DNA of 64,000 bases from a bacterium (GCA_016699105.1 CP064960.1:264727-328726), one strand, 5' to 3'; positions 1,616 to 31,155 are shown, numbered from the stretch's first letter. The notes: generated from the letters alone by a model not told the origin. A program made the numbers and translations.

Positions 1616-1621
1616 GACTTC

Positions 1622-2020: not shown

Positions 2021-2026
2021 GGCTGG

Positions 2027-2260
2027 CTACGACCGGTCCAGCTCGCGCCTCATGTGACGCTGATGGTCAATGGCGTCTTCCAGCAATACGCCTTTGAGTG
2101 TACCTTGGTACCTGTCGACAGGATCCTGCACAGTAAAGGTAATGCTGTGCTCGTTGACCGATTGGACATAGAGCTGTTGCCCTTTCTCCAGTGACAGTTG
2201 CCGCCGGGCTGCTTTCGGAATGACCACCTGGTAGTTATCTGATAATTTAACGGTATTCAT
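2027..2260 (-). CDS. vapB: AbrB/MazE-type antitoxin VapB
   Basis: 77-aa ORF immediately upstream of vapC with a swapped-hairpin-like N-terminus ('VKLSDNYQVVIPKAARRQL'). Confidence 0.6.
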   Translation of the reverse strand: MNTVKLSDNYQVVIPKAARRQLSLEKGQQLYVQSVNEHSITFTVQDPVDRYQGTLKGVLLEDAIDHQRHMRRELDRS

Positions 2261-2288
2261 ATGTTATATGATACTAAGTTATTGTACG

Positions 2289-2675
2289 TTATGCAAAACG
2301 TTTTAGAGTTTTAGTAGCTAGTCCGGTGGTATATACAGGAGTCGATACGTTCATGTTGCCCGACTTATTGTATTCTTGCGCGCCTATGGCTATGGCAGCT
2401 TCAATGCGATGCCAGTTAATTTGTCCCGTCAGATCGAGGTCATTGACTGGGTCTACCTGGGCGAAGCGGCCTATTTGGGATAGGTCGGTACGGGCTCCCA
2501 TGCTGCCCAACCCATGCCGTTGTCTGCAGCATTGGTGAGAGGGGGCGTAGGTAGTTCTATTTAGGGCGCAGCTAGTTAGACGATTGAGGTTGTCGTACGC
2601 TGGTACTTCGGTGCCCTTTCGGCGAGGACTTAATCTAGCGCACCCTAAGATGCCTGGCGTTTGCTGTCCAGCCAA
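2289..2675 (-). pseudogene. degenerate orphan RHS C-terminal remnant (core-end motif plus short variable tip)
   Basis: Encodes '...GARTDLSQIGRFAQVDPV...' matching RHS '[18 protein letters not shown]'. Nucleotides 2500-2522 (ctgcccaacccatgccgttgtc) are identical to 4901-4922. Confidence 0.45.
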
Positions 2676-3103
2676 GCTTCAAATCTATGCATATTTTTTG
2701 GGGAAGGTAGCGGCATAGTCCACATTGCCGACCAGTGTATGTTCTCGCCCAAATATTTCTTGGCTGCAGCCATAAATCTCATGTGAGCGTAAAAAGACGC
2801 GCAGGAAATCAGTATAATACCATAAATCAGCAATGATTTGACTATGTCACTCAGAATAGGCTGATATCTGAACAAAGTAGTTTCAACTAGAACTACAACC
2901 ACTAAGCATTGAAGCACTCTAAGAAGAATAAAGGCGCGGCGCTCCCAACTAGCAGCATCTCTCCCGAGCAGTTTTGTAAGGAGATTAAATGTCTCATTTC
3001 GCATACTCAAACCCATTTCTTTTAATACGAGGGACACATCTATCAATATACTACTGTTCAACGTTGCGCGATTGCACGCTATCTTATCGCCAATTAACTG
3101 CAA
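2645..3103 (-). CDS. hypothetical membrane protein (candidate immunity gene in the RHS orphan array)
   Basis: 152-aa ORF with a long hydrophobic helix; position only. Confidence 0.25.
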   Translation of the reverse strand: MQLIGDKIACNRATLNSSILIDVSLVLKEMGLSMRNETFNLLTKLLGRDAASWERRAFILLRVLQCLVVVVLVETTLFRYQPILSDIVKSLLIYGIILISCASFYAHMRFMAAAKKYLGENIHWSAMWTMPLPSPKNMHRFEAWLDSKRQAS

Positions 3104-3324
3104 TCAACTTAATAGCCAGCCAGCCGGACACCACGGTGATAAAAAATGATAATACTTGGCATAGCAACTTGAGAATATCGCTTCATAGCATTCGATTGAT
3201 CCAGATTTTTCAGTATCCGATTGCCGTTCTGTATCCAGTAAGCTAAGCAGACTAATGATGCAAGAAAGACCGACATCGATGCTATAAAAATACTCAGCAT
3301 ATCGTTCATTCAACTAACCCTTGT

Positions 3325-3731
3325 TCATTCGGTAAGACTTTGTAATAGCATCGCTATGCCCATGATAATCAATACCACACCAGTTACGGGACCGTATGCC
3401 TTTATTACCCGCTGTCGTTGAGGACTAACCTCAATTGTTTTCAATACTTCTTTTGTCATCCATTCTCTAAATATTATGCTGGCTACTCCGCCAAGGATTA
3501 AGAGGATCGAGTTCATTGTATTCATTAATATGATTCCATTAACTTTGAAATTGCATAGATAGCAAAAGCACTGCCCACAATTCGCAAAAATAAGTGTCCT
3601 TGGCGTATGTCTGCGTCGTAAGTTTTAATGCTTAGCATTGAGTCTCTCATGTCGCTCATTGTTTTTGTCGTTTGATATGGAAAGACGGCGAGAGTAGCTC
3701 CAAAGATAGCTAGTATTAAGTAAAATATCAT
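3325..3731 (-). CDS. two consecutive small membrane proteins (66 and 68 aa)
   Basis: ORFs 3525..3731 and 3325..3525 each carry 1-2 TM helices; function unknown. Confidence 0.25.
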
Positions 3732-3824
3732 AACAATTTCGCCTTACTCTAGAGGCTCCATAGCTTCATTACATAAATAGCTTGGCGTAAAGCTATCACA
3801 ATATATTTAGGCTTCGCTATATGT

Positions 3825-4157
3825 TTAGTGGCTACCTGAATGACTTCGACTCCAAGTATTAAGATGAAGCCATGTCTGAACACATACAATTGCAATAAAT
3901 ATTGCTAGCAGTACGATTGGCCAGCCTAAACCGACAAACGCTTGGCTTTCAAAACTCTTACCTAATTCATCAGCGCGTAAGGCCGCTTTAACAGTATTGC
4001 TTATAATGCCTGCGAAACTCAAATAGAGTAAAATAAGTATCAACTTCAAACCAATTGAGTATTTACCCTTACCAAATATTAATAGTGTTGTGCCCCATAC
4101 AACTACACAAATCATTGTAATTACGGCAATGATAGTTATTACGTCCCCAATGTACAT
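3825..4157 (-). CDS. hypothetical membrane protein (candidate immunity)
   Basis: 110 aa, three hydrophobic helices. Confidence 0.3.
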   Translation of the reverse strand: MYIGDVITIIAVITMICVVVWGTTLLIFGKGKYSIGLKLILILLYLSFAGIISNTVKAALRADELGKSFESQAFVGLGWPIVLLAIFIAIVCVQTWLHLNTWSRSHSGSH

Positions 4158-4180
4158 TATTTTTAATACCTTTCGTTAAA

Positions 4181-4486
4181 TTACGGATTGCAGCCACTTA
4201 ATTGCATACGTACCCAACTGACTTCAGGCGCATTATCATCGAGGTTCCAAGATTCTTTATATTCAGTAAAAAATAAACCTGGGTAGTTGGCATGACACTC
4301 GAATTGGTCATATAAACTCTGCGAGTACGGTGTATGACTTAACTGCAAAGCCTCACTAAATGCTCGTTCAGTATCCTCTCGAGAGTTTGACCTACCATAA
4401 GTTGTAGGTATGACTTCTAAGTAAGGAACGTTTGCTCTTGTTTTCCACTTAGCACTATTGATATATAGCGGCTTTTGGGGTGGCAA
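4181..4486 (-). CDS. hypothetical soluble protein (candidate immunity protein for orphan RHS tip)
   Basis: 101-aa ORF directly downstream of the orphan RHS cassette. Confidence 0.3.
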   Translation of the reverse strand: MPPQKPLYINSAKWKTRANVPYLEVIPTTYGRSNSREDTERAFSEALQLSHTPYSQSLYDQFECHANYPGLFFTEYKESWNLDDNAPEVSWVRMQLSGCNP

Positions 4487-4613
4487 AGGCTTATTAAGTT
4501 GGTTAAACGCATCACTTGCCCTTCGCTTAGATTCAGTTGTTGGTTCCTGCCTTGTATTTTTACAGCCTGGCTAGTAGAGACAGCTGTAGCGATAACACTA
4601 AATCCAAATGTGA

Positions 4614-5723
4614 CTATCGCGATAACCTGCCCTCCCCTGCCTTGATGTCATTATATAGTGCTGCGGCCCCTGCCTTAGCGTCATTGTAAAGCTGACCAGC
4701 CTTCGCTTTCATATCTTCCCACCAACCCCGACCAGAATAATCATTGAAGTTTACAGGATCATTCACATAGCTATATGCATTGTCCGTACCACCTTCTACG
4801 GGGTCGATACTGGTAAAGCGGCCAATGGAAGGTAAGTAGACCCTCGCGCCCATTTCAATGATGGGAATACTAAACATACTCTCGGCTTTGCGGGTGGGAC
4901 TGGCTGCCCAACCCATGCCGTTGTCACTAGCATTGGTGAGGGTAGTTTTGCTAGTACCAAAGGTGTTGCTGTTGAGAACTTGGCCAAAGGGATCGTAGAG
5001 CATGACGCTGGTGCTCGGTAGACCGGTGGCGGCTACTTGGATGGCTGTATCGCCATGGAAGTTTTTGAGGGAGTAGATAGGAGTGCCGTTTTTGACGGTA
5101 AGTGATACGCCTCCTGGAAGGCCAATGTATTTGTCGAGGGTGGTGCAGCTTGATTGGTTACTGGTGCTACATGTCAGCATAACACCACCGGCGTTGCGGT
5201 AGACTTTGTCGAGGACGGAGTTTCGATATTCTCGCTTGATGAGGACGGCACCACCGGCGGATTTGACGTACTCGGTCCAATTGGTGCCCTGCTGGATTTT
5301 GGTGTTTTGATCACTGGCGTCGTAGGTGAACTGGATGGGTGCACCGGCACCAGTAACTTGCGTGATGTTGCCGTGGTCGTCGTATGTGGGAGTGCCAATC
5401 TGAGAGTCAGTGGAGCTGAAGAGCCGGTCGGCCGCCGAGTAGCAGGATGTGGTGGTCGTGTTTTGAGAGTTGAGGGTATTGGTAATGCTCGTACTGGTTC
5501 GGTTGCCATTTTTGTGGGCATTGGCATTGTAGCCTGAGATACTCGTACAAGCAGCCTGTTGGGTACTGAAGCCGTATTGGTACTGCCAGTTGTCGATGGT
5601 CGTCTGAGTGAGCCGGCCGAGGGTGTCGTATTGGTAGGAGGCTCCGGCAGATTGGGCGCCTTTGGTGATGGTGTCTGAGGTAACGAGGCCTTTTTGGACT
5701 GAGAGACCGACAGTTTCGGACAT
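4614..5723 (-). CDS. orphan RHS C-terminal cassette (YD repeats, RHS core end, alternative short C-terminal tip)
   Basis: The 369-aa product is near-identical at protein level to residues ~1880-2230 of the 2446-aa RHS protein (starts '[17 protein letters not shown]', carries '[11 protein letters not shown]...[15 protein letters not shown]'). It then diverges into '[19 protein letters not shown]...'. Confidence 0.75.
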
Positions 5724-5915
5724 AGTGGCGCCATCCTCCTCAGCGCTGGCACGGCTGCTGCTGCATATTTGGTGCCGCTCTTACTACTGCCTGGCTCCAC
5801 ATGCCCTGTCGCTGGTGGTTTTGGCTTGTTTCAACTGGTCGTAGGTTAGCACTTTGTTCAAAGGGAACCTAGTGGCTGGCACCGGCGCCGTTATGCGGCG
5901 AGGCGGAGGCTAGTA

Positions 5916-6128
5916 TTAGGGCCTGATTTCGGCAAGAAGGTAATAGAGACCACCTATTGATAATGCGCTGCCGACAATAACATACATTATTCTTGTTATG
6001 ATACGTTCTCTATCGCCGAACTTTGAACCAAACATGTAATTTTGAGCTTTGATGTAGTAATTACTAATCCTGCCATTAAATATCACGAAGATTAACCCGG
6101 CGCAAATTTGAAGTAGTATCCAGAACAT
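5916..6128 (-). CDS. small two-TM protein, candidate cognate immunity protein of the main RHS toxin
   Basis: 70-aa ORF 28 bp downstream of the RHS stop; two hydrophobic helices. Confidence 0.35.
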   Translation of the reverse strand: MFWILLQICAGLIFVIFNGRISNYYIKAQNYMFGSKFGDRERIITRIMYVIVGSALSIGGLYYLLAEIRP

Positions 6129-6155
6129 ATCCTTATAATCCCACTTTATGTAAAG

Positions 6156-9100
6156 TTAATACAATACAAACGGACTGCCGACGCATTGCGTAAATACAGA
6201 CGCACCTCCAGGCAGCATGAGACCGTACTCTGCTTTCCGCGGATCAAGATCATTTCCTGACGAGACTCCGAAACCTGCACCCGCTGTCCATGAGGTGGTG
6301 CATCCCTCTGTGGGCTCACTAGGGGAATAAGTTATATTTAGGCCTTTTCCGGGTGTTGAAGGACCAGTGCCCCAATATGGCCTTGCGCCTTGGTTATTCA
6401 CCATAACACCTGCCCCCGCACCCCAGGGTATCGGTATGGCGGTACCTGGTACTGGTATAAGAAACCCATATGATACGCCAACATTAATGTAACCCCACCC
6501 AGACTCCCCTGGACTGGGATTGCTAGGTGGTAGAGATCTTACGATAGAGCCGCTTTGTATGTCCCTTGCAGTTTGGCGATTTTGCTGCTGTGTATTTGGT
6601 GCTGCTCGTACCGTTGCCTGTCTCCACACACCCTGGTTGATAGTAGCACTTATCGGAGCAGGAGCAGCATTGACCGTAGTTTTCTGGGGAGCACCTTGAA
6701 GCAGATAGTCTGTGTTGGCTGAGCAATAAACACCAGGGACACATCTGCCTGAATAATCGTTTGAGCTAACAGGGTCGTTTACATAGCTATAGGAGTTTAC
6801 TGAGCCGCCTTCGACTGGATCCACGCTCGTAAACCGGCCCACACTTGGCAGGTATACTCGGGCACCCATCTCCACTACTGGAATTGAAAACATCGATTCA
6901 GATTTACGTGCCGGGTCAGCCGCCCAGCCCATGCCATTGTCACTGGCATTAGTGAGCGATGTCTTACTCGTACCAAACGTATTACTCGCCAGTACCTGCC
7001 CAAACGGGTCATACAACATGACGGCGGTGGAAGGTAGGCCATTGGCACCCACCTGGATGGCAGTATCACCATGGAAGTTTTTGACTGAGTACACGGGTGT
7101 ACCGTTCTTGAGCGTTAAACTCACACCACCCGGAAGGCCGATGTATTTATCCAATGTGGTACATGAGCTCTGATTACTGGTGGAGCAGGTGAGCATGACC
7201 CCACCGGCATTACGATAGACTTTGTCGAGCACCGAGTTGCGGTATTCGCGCTTAATGAGCACGCTGCCGCCAGCACTCTTCACATACTCCGTCCAATTGG
7301 TGCCCTGCTGGATCTTGGTGTTCTGGTCACTGGCATCGTAGGTAAACTGGATGGGAGTACCGGCTCCGGCCAGTTGGGTAATGTTGCCGCGGTCGTCGTA
7401 GGTAGGGGTACCAACCTGGGTGTCGGTAGAACTGGCCAGCCGGTCGGCGGCGGAGTAGCAGTAGTTACTGGTAGTGGTACTGCTGGTAAGTGTGTTCGTG
7501 ACCGCAGTACTCGTCCGGTTGCCGTTCTTGTGAGCATTGGCGTTGTAACCAGGGGTGCTGGTACAAGCGGCTTGTTGCGTCCCAAAGCCGTATTGGTACT
7601 GCCAGTTGTCGACCGTAGCCTGAGTCAATCTCCCGAGGCCGTCGTACAGGTAGCTGGCGCCGGCGGTCTTGCCGCCTTGGGTGAGGCTGTCACTGGTAAC
7701 CAGGCCTTTTTGGACTGACAGGCCGACAGTCTCGGATATGGTGGTATTGTCGGCAAAGGTGAAGACCGAGCCAGTGGTGCGTTGGAGGTTGTCTCGTGTG
7801 ACTTGGGTCAGGCGCAGGGTGTTGGTGCCGTTGGTGGCCTGTGGGTAGTTCACGGTCGCCAAGCGACTGTAGCTGTCGTAGGTCATGGTGGCGTAGGTCG
7901 TGCCATCCAAGGCGTAACTGGTGACTTGGCTGAGGGTGTTGTAGGTAGGAACCTCGGTGCCCTTGAGGCTGGTGGTTTGACTAACCCGTCCGAGTGTATC
8001 GTAGGTGGTAGATGTGGTATAGCCGAAGACATCGGTAGTGTTGGTGGTGCGGCCCAAGAGGTCGATGGTGACGCTTGAAGTACCGGTGACTGAGTCAGTG
8101 GAAGAACCGTTTAGGGGGTTGCCCGAGACAGCATAATCGTAGCTGATTGTCCGGCCAGTCCGGCCTGAAATTGTCGGTGTGATGGTCTGCGAGACGCGGC
8201 CGCGGCTATCGTAAGTGGTACATGACCAGGGGTCGGTTTGATTTGTTGCGCCAATCATCCGCGAGGCCACGATGCGGCCAGCATCGTCGTAGATGACTTC
8301 GGTTTTTCGGCCGCTGAGCGTACCGCCACCATCTGGGTCCTGCTCGGTCTTGAGTTTGCTCATTCCGGCTTGTTTATAGCTTTCGGTGGTGCCTGCGGTA
8401 CACGGGTTGTCGGCTGTGTCGGTGGCGGCATAGTAGCTGTAGGTAGTAGCTGTACCACCAGGGAGCGTTTTACCGGTCTGACGTAGGTATGAGCCGGTGG
8501 CGCCCGGTGTTTCGTAGGTACTCGAACTAGAATAGTTGAGGCCGGTGGGATCGGCGGTTGCGGACGTAAGTAAACCAAGCTCGGGATTGGTGCCATAATT
8601 GTTGGTTGCTGTAGTATTACCTACTTGAGAATCATAGACTTTGTTGGTTGTACTCAAGCCGTAGCCAGGACTCCAGCCCCAGTTTTGGATGGCGCAGTCA
8701 TAGTATGCGTCTGGTCGGGTGACACAGAGGTCGAGGCGGGCGTCACTAAGGGTGCTGGGGGCAGTGTATTTTTCGATCCTGATACGGTGCCAGGAGTCGG
8801 CGGTGTTGACGTAATTGCCTTCAGTAAGCTGACGGTACCCGGTATCACGCCAGTCACCGACGATAAGCTGATCGTCGATATAGAGCAAAAATCCATCATC
8901 GGTATAGGCACGCCATTTGTAAGTACCTGTTTGCATGAGGTGGACCCACCCAGTCACGCGCGCGCCCCACCCTTTGCCGGAGTCGGGGGTGATAGGCTGG
9001 CCAATGCCATAGCCCGGCCAATTAGTGCCCCAAATGGCATATACGCCTTTATCAGCAGGGTTAAGTCCGGTTTGGTGCTTTCTGGGCGTGCCGACTAGGG

Positions 9101-12100
9101 TTTTAGTGGTTGGGTCTTCGTTATAGAAGGCGGCAGCGAGGGTGTTGATGCCTTCATCGTAGGTAGTTTGTGATCGAGGTGTTTGATTGGTATATGTAGC
9201 AAACGGCGCCCGATAGGCATTGCTCGGGTTTGCAGTCGTACTAACCGGAGCTGTTGGTCGCTTCCATACGGGCAGTCCGGCTTCATTGTAAATATTGGCT
9301 TGGCCGGTATTTTCAATGACTGTGCGACAATATGATCCGCCGACAGTATTGCTTGCCCAATAATCGGTAGCTCCGTTGTAGAGTACCAGGTTGCAGTCTG
9401 ATTGCATCAAGAGATGCGTGACAGCATGACCACCTGTCTGGCTACTCCAAACGGGTCCGGATGGTCCATATACTACGAGATTCCCATCGGATTGTAAGGC
9501 GAGACTGAAACGGCCATCTTGCGACATGAGGTAGCCACCCGGATACATAAACGAATTGGTAGACAAGACTCCTTTGGGAAACCACGCTGCTGGCGCGGGT
9601 CCGTATTGGTCAGTCGGCCGGTCGGCATAGTCATAGGCGATGGTGGAGCGCATACCTGTAGGATCGGTGGTAGCGACTACGAGGTCTTTGAGCTGATCCC
9701 ATTCGGTAGTGGTGGTGAGATCGGCAGCAGATGTATCGGATAATGTGCGGTAGATACCATCGTAGGTAATTTTGCGGCTAAAGCCATTTGGTTCCGCTGC
9801 CCCTGTGACGTGGATGCGTGATTCTCCTACTCGGTATTCATACGTGCGAGCCAGGCGGCTAGCACCGGCAGTGGCGGCGGGTAAGGTTGCACTAACAACC
9901 CGACCGAGGACATCGAAGGTATAGTCAGTACGTTCAGTGCCATCTTGGTTTCTGACACTAGCTGTAATTGCATCGTTTGCGAGACTATCACGAATGGAAT
10001 TGATGCGGCCTAAGTTGTCATAGCCATAATCGGTGAGGTCGGTTCCGGGCAATTCTATGCGCGCCAGACGAGGTATACCGCCTGAATCATTTGCATAAAA
10101 GAGTTTGGTTTGACGTCCATCGGAAGTGGCGACGGCACATAACATGCCCGAGGGTGTACTAACGAATCCACCGGGAACTGCCGGGCAGTTGGCATTACCC
10201 TGATAGTATAATTTTGCCCAACGGTCGGTGGAGATCCCGTCTGTTACCTGATCGAGCCGGGCAGGACTACCAGAGTAGGAATACGTTAAAGCTGCTGGAC
10301 GCAAGTCGTCTACTGGCATCGAGGTTGAACGCAACGTGCCATCGGAGCCGAAAATATAGGTTCGCCCATCGGTGTCTTGCAAAGTGATCGTACCGTCACC
10401 GGCGCGTGAGAGCTGTCCTGCTTCCCCGGAAGGCGGCGTAAAAACTGACCCCGAATATTTGTATTCATGCGAATTTCCTGACGTGTCGCGCAGCGTGACA
10501 CTATTGGTGTTGATGACTGCAAAATCGTAATTGACGTTATCGTCGATACCAAGCGTCCAGCCATCAGGTACCACTTGAGCTTTGGGTAAAAGCCAATCGC
10601 TTGGCACTGGCAGACCTTTGTCGATACCAGGGCCATCGACATACAAGCCAACATTGGCGGCTCCGGTGACTTCCTTGTACTCAACGGTAATTTGGGTGGT
10701 GTCACCGGCATTGGCAAATGATACCGTATTTGTTGCCCAGGTGGGCGTAGTGGTGGCGCCGCTCGACCATGTGTCGACCTGAGTTGTGCCGCCAACAATT
10801 ACCTTAGCCCCGTCATCTGATTGGGCGCCAAATTTGTAATTGCCGGCTTGGGGTGCCTTGAAGTAACCAGTCCAGCGCACCACAAAGTTGTCTGTGGGTC
10901 CTCCCGGTAACGGTGAGCCGTTGCCCCAATCTTGACTAGGGCTTGTATCTGATCGGACGAGAAACGTTCCGTTAGTATCAGTGTAGCTGGTAGGTAGGGT
11001 GGCGCCGTTGTAATAGCGTCCGATGAGTCCGTGGGGTGTGGCAACAGACCGGATACCAGTTTGCAACCAGTCAGCCGGTATGGGTCCGGCAGGTACTTTG
11101 CCATCAGTTGACCGCGCCAAGAATTGTACTGAGGCAGAGCCAGTAGTTTCAGCGTACTCGAGCTTTACTTTGACGATCTGTCCGGCAGTTAAGGCAACGT
11201 TACCACCCCACAAGCCGCTTTGTGATGTATTCCAAGAGTCTAGGTACGATTGGTCATCTAGATATAAACGCGCTCCATTGTCGTGGGCGAGCCCGAAATT
11301 ATAGGTTTTAGTTTGAGGCGCTACAAAGTAGCCAGTCCAACGAATTAGAAAATTATCTGTAGTTACAATACCTGGATAGGGACTACTGGATCCCCAATTG
11401 TAGTCGATACCATTATCTATTTTCGTTATTGCGGCTGCGGTACCGGCAGATGGGAATGTCCGAGTAGCTGACGGGTCATTATAGTATTCACCTACAAGGC
11501 CTGCCCGTGAACGCCATGGAGAATTGTAATCTAGGCCAATACCGAGAGTACCGCCTAATGCGGCAATGCCATGGGATTTAGCACTGGTAGTAGCGTTGCC
11601 GGAAGCTAAGTCGACGCTTAGGCCGCCAGCTGAATCATAACTTTGCGTACTATCTTGCCCACTTCGCAGGTCTACCCGAAATGATTGGGTAGGACCATAC
11701 GTTGGTATAACTCCGGTGCGATTATCCCAAGTTTGAACCTGCCAATAGTAGGTTGTGCCATCGCGCAAGATGTTATCGGGTATGGTCCATTTATTTGTGG
11801 TATAACCTGAGTCGGCAATGATTCCGCCAACTGAATTGGTGCCAGTTTTAACGGTGCCAATAACAAAACGGTAATTGACGGGATCTCCATCGGCATCGGT
11901 AGATGTGCTGGCCGTGAAACTCGGCTGCGTGGTAACGACGGTCTGGCCTTCGAGCGGAGCCAGTCCACTGCTGGCTGTGGGCAAGTTGGTGTAGTTGAAC
12001 CACACCTGAGTCTTGTCGTAGGCAAACTGTTTGTATGAGTAATAATTATTCTGATTTTCCTCGCCCCAGACCATAAACCAGGCGTTAGGGTCACCAGAAG

Positions 12101-13496
12101 CTGCCCGTTCCCGGTACATGTCGGTGGTATTGATGTCATAGGCGTTGGTATTCCATTGGGTAGCCGAGGGAGTGTTAGATGCAACACAACTAAAGCAGTT
12201 GCCGGTGTTGAGTTTGGTCGTAATGTAATGGCCATCGCAGTTGCCATATGCGGGATTGCTACAGGTGGGCATTTCAACATGGAAATTGGCTTCTATGAGG
12301 TATTTGGTCGGTGAAACAAATTGCGAGTAATCTACATGGTAGGCAAAGCGCCAATATTTGTTACTAATTGAACCAGTCGAATTACCGCAGCCTTGTCCGG
12401 CATAGCAGATAAATCCGTCAGACTTGTAATTTACGTAATTGTTGCTGGGGCCGCTTTGGACAACAAAGGTTGGATCTACAACCAATGGGAAGTCGGCAGT
12501 TGCACGGTCATTTAACCACTTTGGGTCGACGGTGATTGTCAGCCGTTGGCCTTTGAGTTTTTGACTAACGTATGGCTCAGCACCGATGATACCTTCGGTT
12601 TGAGTAGCAATGGTAGGTGCAGGAATAACGAAATCTTTGAGATTACCGTCGAGTTTGAACCAACCTGCTGGACGGTCAGCAACAGGCGTGAGAGAGGTGC
12701 CTGTTATATCAAAATTGAACGTGTTTGAAGCGAGTCGGCTTTTGATGATGATGTGTTCGCGTAGCTCTGACCCAAGTACGGCATACATGAGATCAATACC
12801 CGGCCAGGCATTGCGATATGTAACAGTTTGAACGCCATCTGATTCTGAGACTACCGGGTCAACGGCTGCTGCTCCAGCGGGTTTTAGGCTAACAGTTTGG
12901 TCGCCTTGAACGAGTTCAAGATTGGTGGCGCTGACTTTGCCGAACCGGACCTGCCACGAGTTCGCTCGACTTTTCCAACGGCCATCAGAACTATCTTGAA
13001 CTAGGGTGGTGTCTACTTTTTGCCAAGACCCTGCAGTGTCACGAAAGTTTGATGCCTGAAACGTTTCAACCGCAGTCTTGGTTCCATCCGCATTCTGATA
13101 AACAGTACGGTGGCCGGTGCGATCTTCGGGGAGCGTGGCTACCCGTGTTAGGTCACGTGGTCGACCTTTCGTGGCTATATCTCGATCTTCATCGAGTTGT
13201 TGCTGCAACGACTTTGAAATGGGCTGGGCTTTGGCGGCTGGTTCGATGGCATCGCTGGCGGTAATTTGGTCGGTAGTGTCTAGAGCGGCTAATGATTGTG
13301 GAGTGCGGGATTGTTGTCGTTGATAATATGACAAGAGCGCCGGGAGGCTCGTACCACTAATGCGAGAATTAGTATTGTGGCAATAAAACGGCGGACAGGG
13401 ACATGGGTGAATTTGAACGACCAATGCCGACGCAGCATAGTACACCTCAACAACACTTATTACTTGCAGCATAAGCTTATTCTCAGAGTGGTGCAA
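6156..13496 (-). CDS. giant RHS/YD-repeat polymorphic toxin with bulb-type lectin and three PA14 domains; C-terminal ~200-aa variable toxin domain
   Basis: Uninterrupted 2446-aa ORF. PA14-like segments at 'GLVGEYYNDPS...IRWTGYF', 'GLIGRYYNGATL...VRWTGYF' and 'WVHLMQTGTYKWRAYTDDGFLLYIDD'. Bulb lectin: 'SQDGRFSLALQSDGNLVVYG...QSDCNLVLYN'. Many YD repeats ('YTYDxxGR'). RHS core end '[34 protein letters not shown]' followed by a Cys-containing unique tail. The N-terminal start is uncertain, because an alternative-frame ATG near 13438 gives a signal-peptide-like start. Confidence 0.85.
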   Translation of the reverse strand: MHHSENKLMLQVISVVEVYYAASALVVQIHPCPCPPFYCHNTNSRISGTSLPALLSYYQRQQSRTPQSLAALDTTDQITASDAIEPAAKAQPISKSLQQQLDEDRDIATKGRPRDLTRVATLPEDRTGHRTVYQNADGTKTAVETFQASNFRDTAGSWQKVDTTLVQDSSDGRWKSRANSWQVRFGKVSATNLELVQGDQTVSLKPAGAAAVDPVVSESDGVQTVTYRNAWPGIDLMYAVLGSELREHIIIKSRLASNTFNFDITGTSLTPVADRPAGWFKLDGNLKDFVIPAPTIATQTEGIIGAEPYVSQKLKGQRLTITVDPKWLNDRATADFPLVVDPTFVVQSGPSNNYVNYKSDGFICYAGQGCGNSTGSISNKYWRFAYHVDYSQFVSPTKYLIEANFHVEMPTCSNPAYGNCDGHYITTKLNTGNCFSCVASNTPSATQWNTNAYDINTTDMYRERAASGDPNAWFMVWGEENQNNYYSYKQFAYDKTQVWFNYTNLPTASSGLAPLEGQTVVTTQPSFTASTSTDADGDPVNYRFVIGTVKTGTNSVGGIIADSGYTTNKWTIPDNILRDGTTYYWQVQTWDNRTGVIPTYGPTQSFRVDLRSGQDSTQSYDSAGGLSVDLASGNATTSAKSHGIAALGGTLGIGLDYNSPWRSRAGLVGEYYNDPSATRTFPSAGTAAAITKIDNGIDYNWGSSSPYPGIVTTDNFLIRWTGYFVAPQTKTYNFGLAHDNGARLYLDDQSYLDSWNTSQSGLWGGNVALTAGQIVKVKLEYAETTGSASVQFLARSTDGKVPAGPIPADWLQTGIRSVATPHGLIGRYYNGATLPTSYTDTNGTFLVRSDTSPSQDWGNGSPLPGGPTDNFVVRWTGYFKAPQAGNYKFGAQSDDGAKVIVGGTTQVDTWSSGATTTPTWATNTVSFANAGDTTQITVEYKEVTGAANVGLYVDGPGIDKGLPVPSDWLLPKAQVVPDGWTLGIDDNVNYDFAVINTNSVTLRDTSGNSHEYKYSGSVFTPPSGEAGQLSRAGDGTITLQDTDGRTYIFGSDGTLRSTSMPVDDLRPAALTYSYSGSPARLDQVTDGISTDRWAKLYYQGNANCPAVPGGFVSTPSGMLCAVATSDGRQTKLFYANDSGGIPRLARIELPGTDLTDYGYDNLGRINSIRDSLANDAITASVRNQDGTERTDYTFDVLGRVVSATLPAATAGASRLARTYEYRVGESRIHVTGAAEPNGFSRKITYDGIYRTLSDTSAADLTTTTEWDQLKDLVVATTDPTGMRSTIAYDYADRPTDQYGPAPAAWFPKGVLSTNSFMYPGGYLMSQDGRFSLALQSDGNLVVYGPSGPVWSSQTGGHAVTHLLMQSDCNLVLYNGATDYWASNTVGGSYCRTVIENTGQANIYNEAGLPVWKRPTAPVSTTANPSNAYRAPFATYTNQTPRSQTTYDEGINTLAAAFYNEDPTTKTLVGTPRKHQTGLNPADKGVYAIWGTNWPGYGIGQPITPDSGKGWGARVTGWVHLMQTGTYKWRAYTDDGFLLYIDDQLIVGDWRDTGYRQLTEGNYVNTADSWHRIRIEKYTAPSTLSDARLDLCVTRPDAYYDCAIQNWGWSPGYGLSTTNKVYDSQVGNTTATNNYGTNPELGLLTSATADPTGLNYSSSSTYETPGATGSYLRQTGKTLPGGTATTYSYYAATDTADNPCTAGTTESYKQAGMSKLKTEQDPDGGGTLSGRKTEVIYDDAGRIVASRMIGATNQTDPWSCTTYDSRGRVSQTITPTISGRTGRTISYDYAVSGNPLNGSSTDSVTGTSSVTIDLLGRTTNTTDVFGYTTSTTYDTLGRVSQTTSLKGTEVPTYNTLSQVTSYALDGTTYATMTYDSYSRLATVNYPQATNGTNTLRLTQVTRDNLQRTTGSVFTFADNTTISETVGLSVQKGLVTSDSLTQGGKTAGASYLYDGLGRLTQATVDNWQYQYGFGTQQAACTSTPGYNANAHKNGNRTSTAVTNTLTSSTTTSNYCYSAADRLASSTDTQVGTPTYDDRGNITQLAGAGTPIQFTYDASDQNTKIQQGTNWTEYVKSAGGSVLIKREYRNSVLDKVYRNAGGVMLTCSTSNQSSCTTLDKYIGLPGGVSLTLKNGTPVYSVKNFHGDTAIQVGANGLPSTAVMLYDPFGQVLASNTFGTSKTSLTNASDNGMGWAADPARKSESMFSIPVVEMGARVYLPSVGRFTSVDPVEGGSVNSYSYVNDPVSSNDYSGRCVPGVYCSANTDYLLQGAPQKTTVNAAPAPISATINQGVWRQATVRAAPNTQQQNRQTARDIQSGSIVRSLPPSNPSPGESGWGYINVGVSYGFLIPVPGTAIPIPWGAGAGVMVNNQGARPYWGTGPSTPGKGLNITYSPSEPTEGCTTSWTAGAGFGVSSGNDLDPRKAEYGLMLPGGASVFTQCVGSPFVLY

Positions 13497-13697
13497 TGAT
13501 AGTATTTGGTATGAAATTTAATCAGAAGTCACGTACGACCAGCCGGGCTGCCAGGCCTTGCGGGGCGCCAGTCTTCGGCGACGGCCTGGGGCCAGGTGCG
13601 GTGGCGGAGGAGGACTTCGAGGGCGAGTTGTGGGGCATGATGACCCATGATGGCGATGTGCTGGCCGTCGTAGTTTTTCTGTAAGAATTCGACGAAA

Positions 13698-14063
13698 CTA
13701 TGGATGCGGTGCTCGACGTCCTGGTAGCTTTCGCCGCCGGGGGAAGGGCGTGGTGAAATAGTCGGCTAGGTTGGCTTTGAAGGTGTCGGGTTGGCCATTA
13801 AAATCGCCGTAGTTGCATTCGCGCAGGCGCTTGTCTTGGATGATGTGATATTGGTAGCCAAAGCCAATTTCGGCTGATTCGACCGCCCGCTTGAGATCGG
13901 AGCTGAAAATAGCGTCAAACTTGATGTGTTTGACTTGCTTGCCGAGATCGTTGGCTTGCTTGCGACCAGTGGGCGACAATTCGCCGGGGAGCCAGCCGGT
14001 GGCTCGGTCTTCTTCGTCATCGAACGTAGTACCGTGAACGAAATAGGTTATGTGGACACTCAT
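13698..14063 (-). CDS. histidine phosphatase (phosphoglycerate mutase-like) family protein, probably C-terminally frameshifted
   Basis: 'YFVHGTTFDDEEDRATGW...SPTGRKQA' resembles the 'RHGE(T/S)xWN' fold, with R replaced by V. The ORF ends in an odd Pro/Arg tail and the downstream frame continues in a plausible phosphatase sequence. Confidence 0.4.
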   Translation of the reverse strand: MSVHITYFVHGTTFDDEEDRATGWLPGELSPTGRKQANDLGKQVKHIKFDAIFSSDLKRAVESAEIGFGYQYHIIQDKRLRECNYGDFNGQPDTFKANLADYFTTPFPRRRKLPGRRAPHP

Positions 14064-14068
14064 AGTAC

Positions 14069-14554: not shown

Positions 14555-14565
14555 ATAACCTTAGT

Positions 14566-25542: not shown

Positions 25543-28125
25543 TTAACTTCCCCACTTGAGTGACTGATACATCTCAGACATGCCAGGCACATCGCCGACT
25601 GGGAAGATTTCTATCTTGTAACCACCTTCATCTTCGTTGAAATAGACATCGTAAATGAACTGACCAGGACCAGAGCCGGCGTTCTTTACCATAAATTCAT
25701 TCATTGTTTTGATGTATTCGGAGTTATCTTTGGTTTGACCTTGAGTGTTGTTGGCTCCCCACTCCGGGAAAGCTAACGGCTTGCCATGGCTGAGAGCAAA
25801 TTGACGCCAAGCCTCGATTCCGATTGGGGATCCATCACTGGTTTTGGCATCATGGGGTGTATCCCAATCGTAGGTATCGGGTCCGACTACATCAACGCAG
25901 GCGTCCCCAGGGTAGGCGGCAATAGGTGTGGCTGCACCACCGAGCGTGCCATCATTAAATGACCAAGTCATTTTCAGACCAGCTGCGTGTGCCATGGTGG
26001 CGACGTTACAAAACGTGGTTTTATAAGCAGCTTCTTCGCCTGGCATGACGGCCCATTGGGAGAAATCCATATTAGCTTCGTGAGCAAAGCGGACAAACGA
26101 CAGACCTTTACCGGCGCGATGAGTCTTGATATTGTTGATGGCTTCTTGCCAACGCGCATTGTAAGCACCACTAGCAGCGGCTGACCATGATTCGCCGTTT
26201 TGTTTGAAGATACCACCAATAGCAACATCGACGGCGCCGTTGAAATAATCATAAGCACTAATATTGCTGGCATCGGTGCAGTCAGGAATATCGCACCAGG
26301 TACCAACGATAGTAACAGGTGATTTGCGCCATGTCCCTAGATTGGGATTCAAATCATGCTTTCCATCCTCGAAGCTAGCGCCAGACATCCAGTTGGCGGT
26401 CAGTGGAGCGCTGGTCTGAACTTGTTCGACGAATCCGCACGGGCCTGGTTCGCCACCGGAGCCGATGCCGCCGTCGTCATTGGAATGGCCGCTGCCGGCG
26501 CACATACCTAGGGCCAGGCCGGTGTCAGTCAGGCACTTGTTAACTTTACTGGGGTCGCGGGCGTCGAAAGTGGTGGCGATCATTGATCGGCCGTCAGCTG
26601 AGGGCAATGCCATTTTACCTTCTGGGGTGACGCAATCGTAGATGTCGATGCGCTTATCGGGACCAGGGTAGTTGCCATTAGTATCCGGTGGACCGTTGAT
26701 GTCCTGAACGGCTACGTTTAGGTTGGTGTCGTTGAGTGTCTCTTTGTCGATAGCATAATGGACGACACCCACCGGCGACTTGAGGCTCGGTGGATCGACG
26801 GCTAAGCTGGCCGGGGTAAACGACTGTAACGTATTAGCAAAGTAGTTAACCGGATGTAGAAACAGCGTCGAAGCAAGGCTCGTAAATTTATTGGTGGCCG
26901 AAGCTGGTGTGGCGGGTAGAGCTGCCAGTAATCGCGATCCCATAGAGCCAGGTGTCTCCCAAGCTAGTAAACTGGCAAAGGGTCCCTGGGCGGCCAAATT
27001 GCGCTGGCGTTCAGCGGCAAACTGAGTGGTCTGCTCATAGCTGGCTTCGTACGATACCATGGCAGCACCGAGGTTATCGCGCAGGAAATTATTGGCAATT
27101 ATTTCCCAGCCGCCATCAATGGCATTGCCAAGAGGTGCCCCCCATTCCCCGTTATAGACGAGCCCAAATATTTTTTCGTAGATTACACCTAGCAATTCGG
27201 CTAAATGCTCGCCAACCCAATTGATGGCATCACTCAACCCCGTGATATCAGCAAAAAAGCTCAGAAGTGCGCCTATGCCCGTATTCCTGACGAAGACCAT
27301 AATAGCGTCGGTGATTTTATCGAGAGCTGTGCGGATAGTACATAGACTCGTGTGTTGGAAGCTCAGGCTGGTGAGGCGGCGGTACCACAGGGTCCACTGT
27401 TCGTACTCAGACATGACACGGCCTTCAGCGGGAATGCCTTGAAATTCTGGCGAACCAGCGTAGGTAACACCGCAAAAACCATAATTATTGGCTTTGGAGA
27501 TGAAATTTGAATCGGTACCGACCCGCTTGTCTTCGGGTATTGTGATACCGCCGTCGACATTGTTTGAATTAGTGCGCTGGTAAGCATTAGACTTTTCGAC
27601 GCCATCAATCATCTGCATCAAGACATTGATTTGGCTGGCCGTAAGCTCATCGGCTTTCATTTGGTCTTTGAGGCTAGCCCATGTTTGAGCGACTGTCACA
27701 TATTGGATCGAGCGTAAGGTCACGCCAAGTTTAAACCAGGTGCCATCCCAGATGAAATGGTCGACGTCGGCCGCTAGTGACACCCAGCCAATGATGGGTA
27801 AACCTTTGAGGGCGGCTTTGGCGGCAGTTTCGCCGATCACTTTTGCCAATATACTTTCGATGACTTTGCCAGATTTGGTTTTGAGGTCTGAATACTGTTC
27901 CCGTAGATTCTTTTTACTCTCGTCTTGGACTTCGCGTTGCTCGTCGTTTCTGGGTGCGGCTGCAACTGGCTTAAATGACGGATCACCATTGGGGTCGCGG
28001 CTTCGGACATATGGATCTTCGTCTTGGCAGTCATCTGGGCTTGAAACACAGCCTAGTGACTCGATGGTTTTATCGTTGGGGCCATCGAGCGCCAATGATC
28101 TCGCTTGAGTTTCGGTGTCATGCAT
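25543..28125 (-). CDS. very large secreted protein with a C-terminal GH26-like (mannanase-type) glycoside hydrolase domain; may be fused to the upstream ORFs by frameshifts
   Basis: The C-terminal ~300 aa contain 'VRFAHEANMDFSQW' (GH26 'RFgHEmN' acid/base motif), 'YPGDACVDVVGPDTYDW' (GH26 'yPGddyVDwvGvDvY') and 'LAFPEWGAN' (nucleophile region). 860 aa. Confidence 0.5.
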   Translation of the reverse strand: MHDTETQARSLALDGPNDKTIESLGCVSSPDDCQDEDPYVRSRDPNGDPSFKPVAAAPRNDEQREVQDESKKNLREQYSDLKTKSGKVIESILAKVIGETAAKAALKGLPIIGWVSLAADVDHFIWDGTWFKLGVTLRSIQYVTVAQTWASLKDQMKADELTASQINVLMQMIDGVEKSNAYQRTNSNNVDGGITIPEDKRVGTDSNFISKANNYGFCGVTYAGSPEFQGIPAEGRVMSEYEQWTLWYRRLTSLSFQHTSLCTIRTALDKITDAIMVFVRNTGIGALLSFFADITGLSDAINWVGEHLAELLGVIYEKIFGLVYNGEWGAPLGNAIDGGWEIIANNFLRDNLGAAMVSYEASYEQTTQFAAERQRNLAAQGPFASLLAWETPGSMGSRLLAALPATPASATNKFTSLASTLFLHPVNYFANTLQSFTPASLAVDPPSLKSPVGVVHYAIDKETLNDTNLNVAVQDINGPPDTNGNYPGPDKRIDIYDCVTPEGKMALPSADGRSMIATTFDARDPSKVNKCLTDTGLALGMCAGSGHSNDDGGIGSGGEPGPCGFVEQVQTSAPLTANWMSGASFEDGKHDLNPNLGTWRKSPVTIVGTWCDIPDCTDASNISAYDYFNGAVDVAIGGIFKQNGESWSAAASGAYNARWQEAINNIKTHRAGKGLSFVRFAHEANMDFSQWAVMPGEEAAYKTTFCNVATMAHAAGLKMTWSFNDGTLGGAATPIAAYPGDACVDVVGPDTYDWDTPHDAKTSDGSPIGIEAWRQFALSHGKPLAFPEWGANNTQGQTKDNSEYIKTMNEFMVKNAGSGPGQFIYDVYFNEDEGGYKIEIFPVGDVPGMSEMYQSLKWGS

Positions 28126-29260
28126 TTTGGTCTCTTTATCGACCTCGTCTTCTTTTTGTCGATGCCCCAGCGTTTGACATCGTAGGATTTGGATAGATAA
28201 TAGCGCACCGATCGTCGCTGCAAGATGCGAAAACCCTTATATCGATTTTCGGTAAATCTGGAGATTGTCGCTTCTAGACTGTTCCCAGCTGGGTTGGTTT
28301 TGAAGATTTCTTTTAGTTGACCAATATCATTGGCTTCAATGACTTCACCGCTGCCGCTCGTGAATCTGATGGAGCCGGCTGTACTACCACGCTCGATTTT
28401 AATATTGTGAGCTGTCATCAATTTCTGCTCAAATTGATCTTTGACCATATTACCCCAGAGCATCTTGATGATGTTGGAATTGGTATACATGGGATCGGAC
28501 TCGAGCGTGCCATTGAGGCGAGCAAATAAATATCGGTACACAATGATCTTGGTGCGGTGCTCGGCGTAAGCCTGCATTTTTCTTCTTGATATCCAATTAC
28601 ATTGTTCATGAAAGATTCAAGTTTGAGTGGCAAAAAGGCAATGGTAGAGATAACGAGTGCAATCACAATTCCGAGACCACCACCTCCGGCAATAAGCGAT
28701 TTGCGGTGTTTGCTGGCAAAGTCAAACGTGCGGCCAGCGATACGACGGCCGATAGGACCATTGGCAGCGGCGTTAGCATAGGCATTTCTAGCTCCGGCAT
28801 TATTGGCGAATGAGCCTGGTTTTCCAGGTTGGCTGGGCGTGGCGGTAGTGGTGCCACCTGGCGCCGAGCCACCGGATGCTGCAGCATTGGAATCGGTGGC
28901 GCCGGTGTTTTTGGAACTTGGGCTCGTGGAGTTGGCGTTGTTGATCATCTGATTGCCACGATCATCACCATGGACGGCGTCAAGCGGCTCATTTCTGGCT
29001 GAGGGTATTTCATTGGATCGAGACATTTTGGCTGGCTCATTATCGGCAGCGCCATCGTTTGGGGCTGAAGGTTGGACAATGGTTGCCGGCTTCGGAGCTT
29101 GGTTGCCGTCTATGAGCTGAAATTGTGACCGGCGAGCCTTGGCCTCGGAGTTAACGGCACGGTCGGCGGCCTGCTCGCGGACAGCTTGTAGAAATCGACT
29201 GTCTTTCGGCGGCTCATTATTCGGACTTGATCTGAGGCTGCCAGCAGAACGTAATGCCAT
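28053..29260 (-). CDS. membrane-anchored protein (two overlapping ORFs joined by a probable frameshift in a T/A homopolymer near 28578-28590), possibly the N-terminal part of the 860-aa protein
   Basis: ORF 28418..29260 has a Gly/Asn/Ala-rich low-complexity region and the TM segment 'LIAGGGGLGIVIALVISTIAFL'. ORF 28053..28577 continues in another frame. Both frames stay open across the 28053-28125 overlap with the next gene. Confidence 0.35.
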
Positions 29261-29266
29261 CGCGGA

Positions 29267-31155
29267 TTAAGCTCCTTGCTCCGACGGGGCAACTGCTTCA
29301 TCTGGTGCGGGAGTGGCATTAGCTTTGTCAGCAGGGTTGGTACTGATCAAACTGGCTTCAGTCTCGGAAGCTAGAACTCGGATAATGACGTGGTTGAGTC
29401 CAGCAAAGAACAGGCCTTCACCCACTGGGAATTCGGTAAGCCGAGCTTTTTCCTCATTGGTAAGTTTAAACGTTTCACCAATGATATCGACGGCGGACGG
29501 TGCTTGCTTGAGGAGAAGTTGCAAGGAAGAGTTGGCCACTACCGCCCGCCCCATTTTGTTGCTCAGGAAATCCTCAACGTCTTGCGAGATTGTTGTCAGA
29601 CCCAGGAAATATTTACGAGCCCGTTTGGCTAGACTAAACATGAAGGCTGCTGAATCGTCGTATTTCATGAGCTGCCAAGCTTCGTCAACTATTAAGATGC
29701 GCTTGCGGCGATCAGATTTGACTTTATTCCAGATATAATTGAGTACGATATACATGCCAATGGGGCGAAGTTCGTCTTCTAGGTCGCGGATGTTAAAGAC
29801 GAGGAAGGGGTTGTCAATCTCGACGTTTGATTGTTCAGAGAAGATTCCCGAGAATGTACCGGTAGTAAATTTGCGAAGTCGCATGGCCAGATCTGGACCG
29901 TTGCCAGTCATTGACGCTAATGTGTTGTATAGGTCGTTCATGGTTGGCGGGGTGGCATTGTGTGTGAGTGGATCGCGGGTGATACCGGCACGGGCGTAGG
30001 TGTTGATGATAGCAAGGTCGAGATCAGCGTCTTCACTCGGTGTGAGATTGGTCATGCTGGTGGCACCAGTGGAGTTGGAGACAGTGGCACCACCAATCAT
30101 CAGGCGCAAGAGCCCATGGAGCGTGATGATATTAGCCTGGAGGGCATTGTCGGCTTCGTCTTGATCAAAAACGCGTGGTAAATCAAAAGGGTTGATGCGC
30201 GTCTGACTAGCCAGCGATAAGCGTAAGTACGTTCCACCGACAGCTTCACAAAGGGTTTTATACTCGTTTTCTGGGTCGATCACAATGATCTCGATGCCCA
30301 TCATGAGCGAGCGTAAAGCCTCGAGCTTAATTGAGAACGATTTACCAGCTCCGGATTTGGCGAAGACAACCATATTGGCGTTTTCGAGAGAGAAGCGGTC
30401 GAATAAGACGAGACCATTGTTGTGGCGGTTCAGGCCGTAGAGGATGCCTTCGTTGCGACTAAGTTCGGCAGAAGTGAACGGGAAGCTGGTCGACAAGGCA
30501 CCGGTATCCATGTTGCGGGAGATTTGGAGCTGGTCATTCGCGATGGGGCTGGTAGAATTGAAGCCCTGCTCCATTTGCATGGTAGCCGCTTTGGTGTACA
30601 CCAACGATTGGCCGAAGATACCCTCGATCTTGCGATTGAGGTCGGTCATGGCATCGAGCGAGTCGGCGTACATAGTTAGATACATACCAAATCGAAAGAA
30701 GCGCTCTTCTCCGACTTGGAGCTTGTCACGCAACTCCTCAGCATCCTGGAGTGCAGCCTCGAGACCAGGGTCACGTACTTTGCCCTTCTCTTCATTAATG
30801 GCATAAGACGCTTCCATTTGGGTGACTTTTTACGCAGGTTATCGAGGACTACCCGCGACTCAACGGGGTAAATGTAGAGCGAAATGTCGATAATCTCGTC
30901 GAGGTTGATGATGGGCGATAACCAACCGGTGAATACTTGGCGAGGGTAACCGTAGACGTATAGGGTTTTGCAATAGCGTTTGCCGATGCGGACGTAGTTG
31001 GCATCAATTTCGAGAGACGACGGCGCGATGAGATCGCGCATGGTGATGACGCCCTGACGATAGATGAGCTCAGCTTCGCGTTGTTCTAGAGCCTGCTGGT
31101 AGGCAGCCAGAGCCTGGGGGTCGACTTTGGGTTTGGATGGGCCGAATAATCCCAT
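29267..31155 (-). CDS. virB4: VirB4/TrbE/CagE-family T4SS ATPase (main body), interrupted by one frameshift near 30815-30830
   Basis: ORF 30676..31155 gives 'IDANYVRIGKRYCKTLYVYGYPRQVFTGWLSPIINL' (the CagE_TrbE_VirB region). ORF 29267..30817 gives Walker A 'VVFAKSGAGKSF', Walker B 'ILIVDEAWQL' and 'NMDTGALSTSFPFTSAEL'. Confidence 0.8.

Follow-up and report, generated by a model that had tools for sequence, protein, structure and literature searches.

Bacillus subtilis WapA is a Sec-exported YD-repeat toxin, and toxins of its type, together with the Rhs proteins of enterobacteria, are the described systems closest to the locus reported here. The locus lies in a stretch of 64,000 nucleotides (GCA_016699105.1, CP064960.1:264727-328726; the whole stretch is referred to below as the window) of a metagenome-assembled genome (MAG) that consists of a single contig of 1,322,297 bp, with locus tags IPG36_017xx-018xx, from a long-read assembly. 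With good confidence, we read positions 2398-13527 of the window as a strain-variable Rhs polymorphic-toxin island, which comprises a full-length rhs gene, a displaced orphan copy of the end of such a gene, small open reading frames (ORFs) of immunity type, and the scar of another allele.

The enterobacterial Rhs systems with orphan rhs-CT (C-terminal) cassettes (PMC3150448, PMC4436062) share with this locus a shell of YD repeats closed by a core, a variable tail and a small gene downstream of it, as well as a 5'-truncated orphan with another tip, immunity-type genes without a toxin and the scar of a displaced allele. Unlike them, the locus has no PAAR, VgrG or type VI secretion system (T6SS) context in the window and has a Sec-type signal anchor instead, and its core end reads ...NDPxxxNDYSG(R/Q) rather than the usual ...DPxGL. 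Further differences are the PA14 and lectin inserts of its protein, an orphan with 73% DNA identity, and a host of the candidate phyla radiation (CPR) with a reduced genome.

The WapA-type toxins, such as that of S. suis (PMC12704120), are likewise large YD proteins with an N-terminal signal, no T6SS, a polymorphic C-terminal toxin and an adjacent immunity gene (both putative in the present locus), and a monoderm-type producer. The window protein differs from them in its PA14 and lectin modules and in a Pfam-less, predicted β-barrel tip in place of the WapA nucleases, and no wall-binding repeats were detected in it, unlike WapA. Within Saccharibacteria, a single sentence on the soil organism 'T. 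rhizospherense' (PMC6031116) mentions a 'possible secreted toxin' of 2487 aa with RHS and PA14, next to which lies an immunity gene. Compared by description, that protein agrees with the one reported here in phylum-level group, size class, RHS/YD and PA14 content and immunity neighbour, while its paper gives no account of an orphan cassette, a tip family, an island of immunity genes or a comparison of strains. Because of this case an Rhs toxin in the phylum is not new, and the novelty of the present locus is modest: a rare Pfam-less tip family with a conserved partner of two transmembrane (TM) segments, a possible role for DUF2599, a strain-variable island, and corrections to the public annotation.

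The full-length rhs gene, its tip family and the two-TM partner

The principal gene and the elements that bear on its reading are as follows.

6156..13438, minus strand: full-length rhs gene, about 2427 aa after correction of a 1-nt deletion near 13358; starts MLRRHWSFKFTHVPVRRFIATILILALSGTSLPALL... (signal anchor)
13355..13360, minus strand: 1-nt deletion in the window, GCATT-AGTGG versus GCATTAAGTGG, which cuts the signal anchor off rhs
10620..11507, minus strand: two tandem PA14 (GLEYA-like) carbohydrate-binding domains (ORF aa 664-791 and 822-959; E 3e-20 and 2e-18)
9213..9578, minus strand: bulb-type (B-)lectin-like insert of about 120 aa (ORF aa ~1307-1428)
8706..9002, minus strand: third PA14 domain, inside the repeat region (aa ~1499-1597; E 5e-6, 26.8 bits, cut-off 24)
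6747..7013, minus strand: RHS-associated core TIGR03696 (aa 2162-2250; E 6.5e-11, 42.6 bits, cut-off 32.5), the boundary of shell and tip
6549..6743, minus strand: Cys-containing linker (CVPGVYCSANTDYLLQGAPQKTTVNAAPAP...), common to the protein P0003, whose tail differs
6159..6548, minus strand: putative main toxin tip, Gly-rich, about 115 aa, no Pfam match, predicted 8-stranded β-barrel
5916..6128, minus strand: candidate cognate immunity gene for a 70-aa two-TM hairpin protein; no NCBI annotation

The ORF listing gives a 2446-codon frame at 6156..13496 (minus strand) that encodes an RHS/YD protein in full length, and the corresponding NCBI record (QQR52836.1, 'hypothetical') has 2438 aa from an annotated start at 13472. 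The start at 13496 arose because the assembly lacks one nucleotide, and the true start is ATG 13438. A Logan short-read contig of the same strain (L041, SRR28062882) covers window positions 13121-14570 with 0 mismatches and 4 single-base gaps in 1.45 kb, two of which fall in C4/C5 runs, and from ATG 13438 it reads MLRRHWSFKFTHVPVRRFIATILILALSGTSLPALLSYYQRQQSRTPQ... The deletion near 13448 removes the GGAGG Shine-Dalgarno sequence of rhs, and since the contig restores this sequence, the ATG and the anchor, the true protein is about 2427 aa long with a Sec-type anchor and the 2446-aa start is false. The corrected N-terminus (MLRRHWSFKFTHVPVRRFIATILILALSGTSLPALL) resembles that of the relative L005 and has the Sec signal/anchor of WapA-like YD toxins, its hydrophobic stretch being judged by eye. 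That rhs is a real 5' pseudogene was rejected on the strength of the zero-mismatch short-read contig with its intact frame.

A preliminary description of this DNA, made from the sequence alone, had claimed a full-length RHS protein here, and its domain content bears this out, with three PA14 domains, RHS repeats (PF05593, E 5.7e-9 in the main protein and 6.1e-7 in the orphan, where TIGR01643 also matches) and the TIGR03696 core. The lectin-like insert scores below cut-off (NF033557, E 5e-14; PF01453, E 0.004) and is missing from all aligned relatives and from the allele of the sister strains, the alignments having a gap there, so that a putative receptor-binding module appears to have been inserted here in this lineage only. 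No match to PAAR, VgrG or DUF1795 was found with Pfam and NCBIfam in the rhs protein or in its neighbours within the window, which are a His phosphatase, LMWPc, an S49 peptidase and dnaA.

Scanning the last 331 shell residues against one genome per GTDB species gave seven loci at 50-76% identity, all from Saccharibacteria/Saccharimonadia MAGs (one of them labelled Parcubacteria), and contigs from JGI metagenomes reached 78%. Aligned over their full length, the proteins are 33-50% identical in the N-terminal 1300 residues and 45-71% in the shell, which indicates that the rhs relatives form one vertically related family, and a Saccharimonadia host is hence most likely. The phylum had been called unclear in the preliminary description; the rhs relatives and the small genome now suggest that the genome is most likely that of a Saccharimonadia (Patescibacteria/CPR) bacterium. 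In the window protein, eight relatives and the sister allele, mostly unrelated tails begin right past the core end (DYSG, or DFDLTG in the sister allele), and two of the small ORFs have homologues that stand immediately behind rhs tips elsewhere, in keeping with the tip replacement for which a comparison of relatives had been proposed.

Beyond its core end the main protein has another 195 residues, in which neither Pfam nor NCBIfam finds a match, and a word-indexed homologue search with the 203-aa main tail also returned no match. When 1.84 billion representative proteins were searched exhaustively with HMMER, the last ~115 tail residues proved to have seven genuine relatives, to which a profile search added two more; the top HMMER match, P0002 (756 aa, eight repeated stretches), was discarded as a low-complexity repeat protein. 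At E<=1, eight members of the tip family had no Pfam match except one weak match to MspA, and none to R_equi_Vir (PF05526). In every sufficiently long relative the tip domain directly follows the RHS core end (...NNPxNxxDPSG|xYI(D/N)xGVS...). The Saccharimonadia-type rhs of loci L013 and L014 has the same tip domain with another linker, and because these share only the tip and P0003 shares only the linker, linker and tip are separately exchangeable. Judged by these relatives, the main tail is a member of a small, recurrent, rare RHS-associated family. The ~200-aa Cys-containing tail had been proposed as an unrecognised, candidate new toxin domain; that no Pfam family describes it stands, and that it is wholly novel does not.

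An AF2 model of the tip (pLDDT 68) has eight β-strands, and the closest folds are a COG5400 barrel and the R. equi Vap proteins (Foldseek E 5e-3). The latter (VapA/B/D/G) are small 8-stranded β-barrels that serve as stand-alone secreted virulence proteins and are not Rhs tips. No sequence relation of the tip to Vap was found (Pfam at E<=1; PDB sequence search), and a PDB sequence search with the tip profile gave chance-level matches only (tail fibres, E 0.05).

The genomic context of the tip could be read for four loci (L008, L012, L013 and the window), and a two-TM ORF lies 3' of the tip in all four independent contexts, the 70-aa protein of the window included. In L008, an 83-aa two-TM ORF comes after the full-length RHS gene, whose product ends in the tip domain, and in the downstream orphan of the same locus (P0007) the same tip domain is followed by a 78-aa two-TM ORF. 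A 74-aa two-TM ORF follows the tip domain of L012, from an Omnitrophota MAG, and two such ORFs of 89 and 97 codons (stop to stop) follow that of L013. A profile of the two-TM proteins gives E ~1e-3 at an arbitrary database size, with scores biased by their TM character. As a candidate immunity gene, 5916..6128 is well supported, in that a two-TM ORF follows the tip family elsewhere, and we infer that the main tip may be a membrane-acting toxin and this two-TM protein its immunity factor.

The displaced cassette and variation between strains

Downstream of the full-length gene, the following elements are distinguished.

5756..5808, minus strand: 53-nt relic with 81% identity to the linker of the main tail (6583-6635), lying after the 70-aa ORF and shortly before the orphan's ATG
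4614..5723, minus strand: orphan rhs C-terminal cassette (QQR52835.1), 369 aa, of which 332 aa form the shell with its core end and the last 37 aa, up to the stop, a linker-like tail
4557..4637, minus strand: homopolymer runs G4 (4634-4637) and A5 (4557-4561); with one extra base in each, the orphan and the DUF2599 ORF read through as one
4181..4486, minus strand: DUF2599 domain ORF (QQR52834.1; PF10783 E 7.5e-17, 62.1 bits, cut-off 25, profile positions 1-93 of 94)
2289..2675, minus strand: composite recombination scar, a degraded third copy in the form of a frame-shifted mosaic

Residues 1-332 of the orphan align without gaps to residues 1920-2251 of the main protein at 85% amino-acid identity, the orphan scores 45.3 bits with TIGR03696 (cut-off 32.5), and the similarity of the two proteins breaks off exactly past ...NDYSGR. 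The orphan therefore has the form expected of C-terminal displacement, being 5'-truncated with the 3' shell and core end kept and a different tail beyond them, and the statement that it re-encodes the last ~330 shell residues and then switches tail is borne out. The 'very high' nucleotide identity claimed with it is not, since 4732-5728 and 6748-7744 are 73% identical over 1 kb. A comparison of 4614-5723 with 6700-7800, as had been proposed, does reveal the repeat, at an offset of 2016 nt; the register first given for it (4901-4935 versus 6925-6960) is 8 nt off, and 4901-4935 pairs with 6917-6951. Between the orphan and main shells the third-codon-position identity is 45%, the proportion of synonymous differences (pS) is 0.76 (saturated), that of nonsynonymous differences (pN) is 0.12, and the longest identical run is 28 nt. 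Because pS is 0.76 and pN 0.12, the orphan shell evolved under purifying selection in a working gene, and this codon pattern shows that most of the divergence accrued while both copies were in working genes, one module having come in from a distant lineage. The 73% DNA identity and the saturated synonymous sites make the orphan an old or imported copy and a poor substrate for recombination; together with the 28-nt run, they leave it without enough DNA identity for homologous redeployment. The relic at 5756-5808 probably remains from an earlier rearrangement or from the donor locus. Orphan core-end cassettes 3' of a full-length rhs gene also occur among relatives (L003, 11882-12517; L008, 4001-4719).

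The DUF2599 ORF, which had been put forward as an immunity gene, carries the PF10783 domain and is more likely a toxin tip. The ORF starts at TTG without a Shine-Dalgarno sequence before it, and its frame is open upstream to ~4573. The 37-aa tail of the orphan resembles just the first part of the A/V/K-rich linkers that relatives have before their toxin domains, and a weak linker similarity to L004 and L005 spans the G-run; with both +1 corrections, a single ORF of 514 aa results that consists of shell, a linker of ~80 aa and DUF2599. We put the chance that the orphan and DUF2599 are one gene, split by two homopolymer indels, slightly above even, because three of the four indels proven elsewhere in the assembly are deletions of a like kind. 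A homologue search with the DUF2599 ORF returned itself only, a PDB sequence search was at chance level (β2-microglobulin, E 0.24), and a single-sequence AF2 model (pLDDT 49.5) was too poor and was not used. Mentions of DUF2599 in the literature that was found are made in passing, one of them in a comparative study that counts it with the Pfam families showing the strongest expansion in mycobacteria (PMC3388012).

The scar consists of a shell fragment from further upstream (2600-2675), an orphan-like segment that is 92% identical to 4903-4940 (2502-2539), a segment that, apart from an internal deletion, matches the core end of the sister rhs (IGRFAQVDPV...NDLDLTG) at 86% identity (2445-2501), and the 3' end of a 92-aa ORF of the sister strains (2289-2397). 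A repeat search found a 38-nt element three times (2502-2539, 4903-4940 and 6919-6956), and of the 22-mer CTGCCCAACCCATGCCGTTGTC there are two exact copies, at 2503 and 4904. Compared with the sister sequences, the third copy is the scar of a displaced ancestral rhs allele that those strains still carry here. A degraded third core end sharing a 22-mer with the orphan had thus been recognised correctly; as a usable orphan cassette it was rejected by the sister-locus comparison, being frame-shifted and without a tip.

These sister strains are represented by four short-read contigs (L042-L045) whose flanks are 94-96% identical to the window and whose gene order is dnaN-dnaA, S49 peptidase-LMWPc-His phosphatase, an rhs gene for 2259 aa, a 113-aa soluble ORF, a 73/92-aa ORF, and AbrB-PIN-258-aa gene. 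Their homology to the window ends at 13528 and resumes at 2397, and the variable island is hence delimited as 2398-13527, which nearly coincides with the span first described. The sister rhs is a different allele, in which only the segments flanking PA14 and lectin match (76-77%), with another tip and no orphan array. Two further contigs join the two types. L040 (window 13528-16154 plus 575 nt) connects a window-type left flank (99.8%) to a sister-type rhs start, and L034 (window 1053-4282) connects window-type small ORFs (100% over 2676-4282) to a sister-type right flank (100%), so that both joins fall on the island boundaries (13528 and 2397-2676). As far as these alignments tell, strains differ in the entire rhs allele or the entire island, and tips are not swapped among resident copies. 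dnaA/dnaN lie at 15973-18746 on the plus strand, ~2.4 kb from the rhs island, both in the window and in the sisters, and this distance places a hypervariable toxin locus beside a probable replication origin.

An RHS polymorphic-toxin locus with an orphan and immunity-type ORFs, as first described, is upheld by the domains and the relatives, and the ready reservoir for tip switching that was attached to it is not supported, given the 73% DNA identity and the whole-allele replacement. A working reservoir, in which recombination through the shell would regularly bring the silent orphan and the third copy into the main gene and so change the deployed toxin, would agree with the orphan model of Rhs/contact-dependent inhibition (CDI) systems (PMC3150448), and ~1 kb of collinear homology with identical runs of 28 and 23 bases would give it some footing. 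However, homologous recombination would have to act on the poor substrate described above, the third copy is frame-shifted and tipless, sister strains differ by replacement of the whole allele or island, and no contig was found that joins the orphan tip to the full-length gene; we consider such a reservoir unlikely.

To a like degree unlikely is that the orphan is not silent and, translated from ATG 5723, forms an intracellular toxin-antitoxin (TA)-like module with its downstream partner, as a passage in PMC7043789 reports of a Salmonella orphan rhs that behaves as a type II TA-like module. A GAGGAGG lies ~12 nt 5' of this ATG, which itself falls exactly on the homology boundary, and independent translation of the orphan from it is possible on this arrangement; pN far below pS in the shell part could be taken in the same sense. 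The low pN/pS is, however, equally explained by divergence within full-length genes of different lineages, a promoter and terminator scan showed no enrichment over shuffles and was uninformative, and as assembled the orphan ends in a 37-aa tail without a toxin domain.

Other small reading frames and assembly errors

The polymorphic-toxin island contains further small ORFs between the orphan and the scar.

3825..4157, minus strand: 110-aa ORF with three predicted TM segments, 24 nt past the DUF2599 stop; identical in short-read contigs
3525..3731 (68 aa) and 3325..3525 (66 aa), minus strand: two abutting small membrane ORFs that weakly resemble the two-TM immunity family
2645..3016, minus strand: putative orphan immunity gene, 123 aa from ATG 3016, in agreement with the short-read gene call

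The ORF at 3825..4157 is, by position only, a candidate immunity gene for the orphan tip; the earlier assignment of it as an immunity gene has this position in its favour and against it that no homologue was found beside other tips. The two abutting ORFs at 3525..3731 and 3325..3525 are possible orphan immunity genes on account of their resemblance. The ORF at 2645..3016 is homologous to the ORF directly past the rhs stop in L005 (37%, E 1e-23) and in L001 (28%, E 1e-6), where the tips are hydrophobic and Gly-zipper-like, and because no such toxin is present in the window it is regarded as an orphan immunity gene. These homologues support the immunity gene that had been proposed at 2645..3103, and its extent shrinks to 2645..3016. 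The GC content of window positions 3000-4500 is 37-40%, compared with ~50-55% around them, which fits either a foreign origin or the composition of membrane proteins. Downstream, the island is flanked by a PIN-domain (VapC-like) and AbrB/MazE antitoxin pair at 1622-2260 on the minus strand, which is conserved in the sisters.

The errors that displaced the rhs start extend to its neighbour, since the His-phosphatase gene (13530-14063, minus strand) is split by an insertion near 13743 (C5 versus C4) and a deletion near 13565, and its product has 121 aa at NCBI (QQR52837.1) versus 180-181 aa in short-read assemblies. Independent contigs confirm the window base for base at 5295-6951 (L037, L038) and at 3665-4466 (L035, L036), and further false frameshifts are to be expected elsewhere in the 64 kb. 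At 25543-31155 (minus strand) lies a cluster of large ORFs that includes a TraG/VirB4-like P-loop ATPase (29267..30817), with same-strand overlaps of 28053..28577 with 28418..29260 and of 30676..31155 with 29267..30817; they could stem from additional assembly frameshifts within what may be a type IV secretion or pilus-like set of genes.

A proposed mechanism and its meaning for CPR bacteria

We propose that the Rhs protein would be exported by way of its N-terminal signal anchor and that its PA14 domains and lectin-like insert may bind glycans on a target cell. The YD-repeat shell closed by the RHS core would encapsulate and then release the C-terminal tip, and the β-barrel tip would act on a membrane and be neutralised by the two-TM protein of 5916..6128. 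The displaced orphan would represent 332 aa of shell with another tip, probably DUF2599, split by two homopolymer indels. Diversification would proceed mainly by import of foreign modules of shell end, tip and immunity gene and by replacement of whole alleles between strains, with recombination between resident copies an unlikely main route.

What the sequences show directly is the anatomy of the locus, its homologies and synteny, the differences between strains and the errors of assembly. Several points weigh against the proposed reading of the island. Toxicity, immunity and secretion of the components are deduced from sequence, as are the membrane target, the glycan binding and the fusion with DUF2599; no catalytic motif or known toxin homologue was detected for the main tip, whose fold model is only moderately confident and whose likeness to Vap is at the level of the fold; and the two-TM proteins are weakly alike, with 16-21% identity to the window protein. 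The taxon is assigned from rhs relatives and genome size rather than from a marker-gene phylogeny, and the contigs L034 and L040 are either real recombinants or chimeras of metagenome assembly. For the fusion with DUF2599, no independent contig was found over 4467-5294, the reconstructed 514-aa protein had no exact match in a collection of 15 billion proteins, and no DUF2599-tipped Rhs protein was found in a metagenome scan with linker and DUF2599 or by tblastn of all fetched loci; in the passage of PMC3510237 that concerns it, DUF2599 is a C-terminal accessory domain of P. aeruginosa HvnA and not a known toxin.

That the protein is instead an adhesin or host-attachment factor of teneurin-like kind, with the barrel as a structural or anchor domain and the small TM ORFs unrelated to it, is quite improbable, for although it has three PA14 domains, a lectin-like insert and a tip without a toxin motif, and epibiotic Saccharibacteria are generally held to need adhesins (compare a passage in PMC13622651), unrelated domains replace the tip of close relatives exactly at the RHS core end, the barrel and its two-TM partner travel together across phyla with the barrel found in an orphan cassette as well, and an orphan immunity homologue is retained without its toxin. 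Tip replacement, the pairing of barrel and two-TM protein and a toxin-less immunity homologue are hallmarks of toxin/immunity polymorphism, and this explanation is for that reason preferred to an anchor.

Taken further, the island could belong to an obligate CPR epibiont whose Rhs cocoon, decorated with lectin modules and exported by Sec without a T6SS, would carry a previously undescribed Vap-like β-barrel membrane toxin into competing epibionts or the actinobacterial host; the 70-aa two-TM protein would neutralise this toxin, and DUF2599 would be a second deliverable tip. We regard this picture as speculative and, as a whole, doubtful. If true, it would give a function to both orphan domain families and would tie strain-level competition to a hypervariable island beside oriC.

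For public databases, the locus illustrates how homopolymer indels distort annotation, as seen in the wrong rhs start, the truncated His phosphatase and an orphan that is probably split, and several of its small immunity-type ORFs are without public annotation. It also supplies a defined candidate toxin/immunity pair, the β-barrel tip and its two-TM partner, conserved across phyla, and hints at what DUF2599 might do. Saccharibacteria, like other CPR bacteria, are attached to the bacteria that host them and have very small genomes, and competition among them and harm to their hosts are poorly known. Since a 1.3-Mb genome spends ~11 kb on an Rhs island, contact-dependent antagonism would seem to matter even in such reduced organisms.

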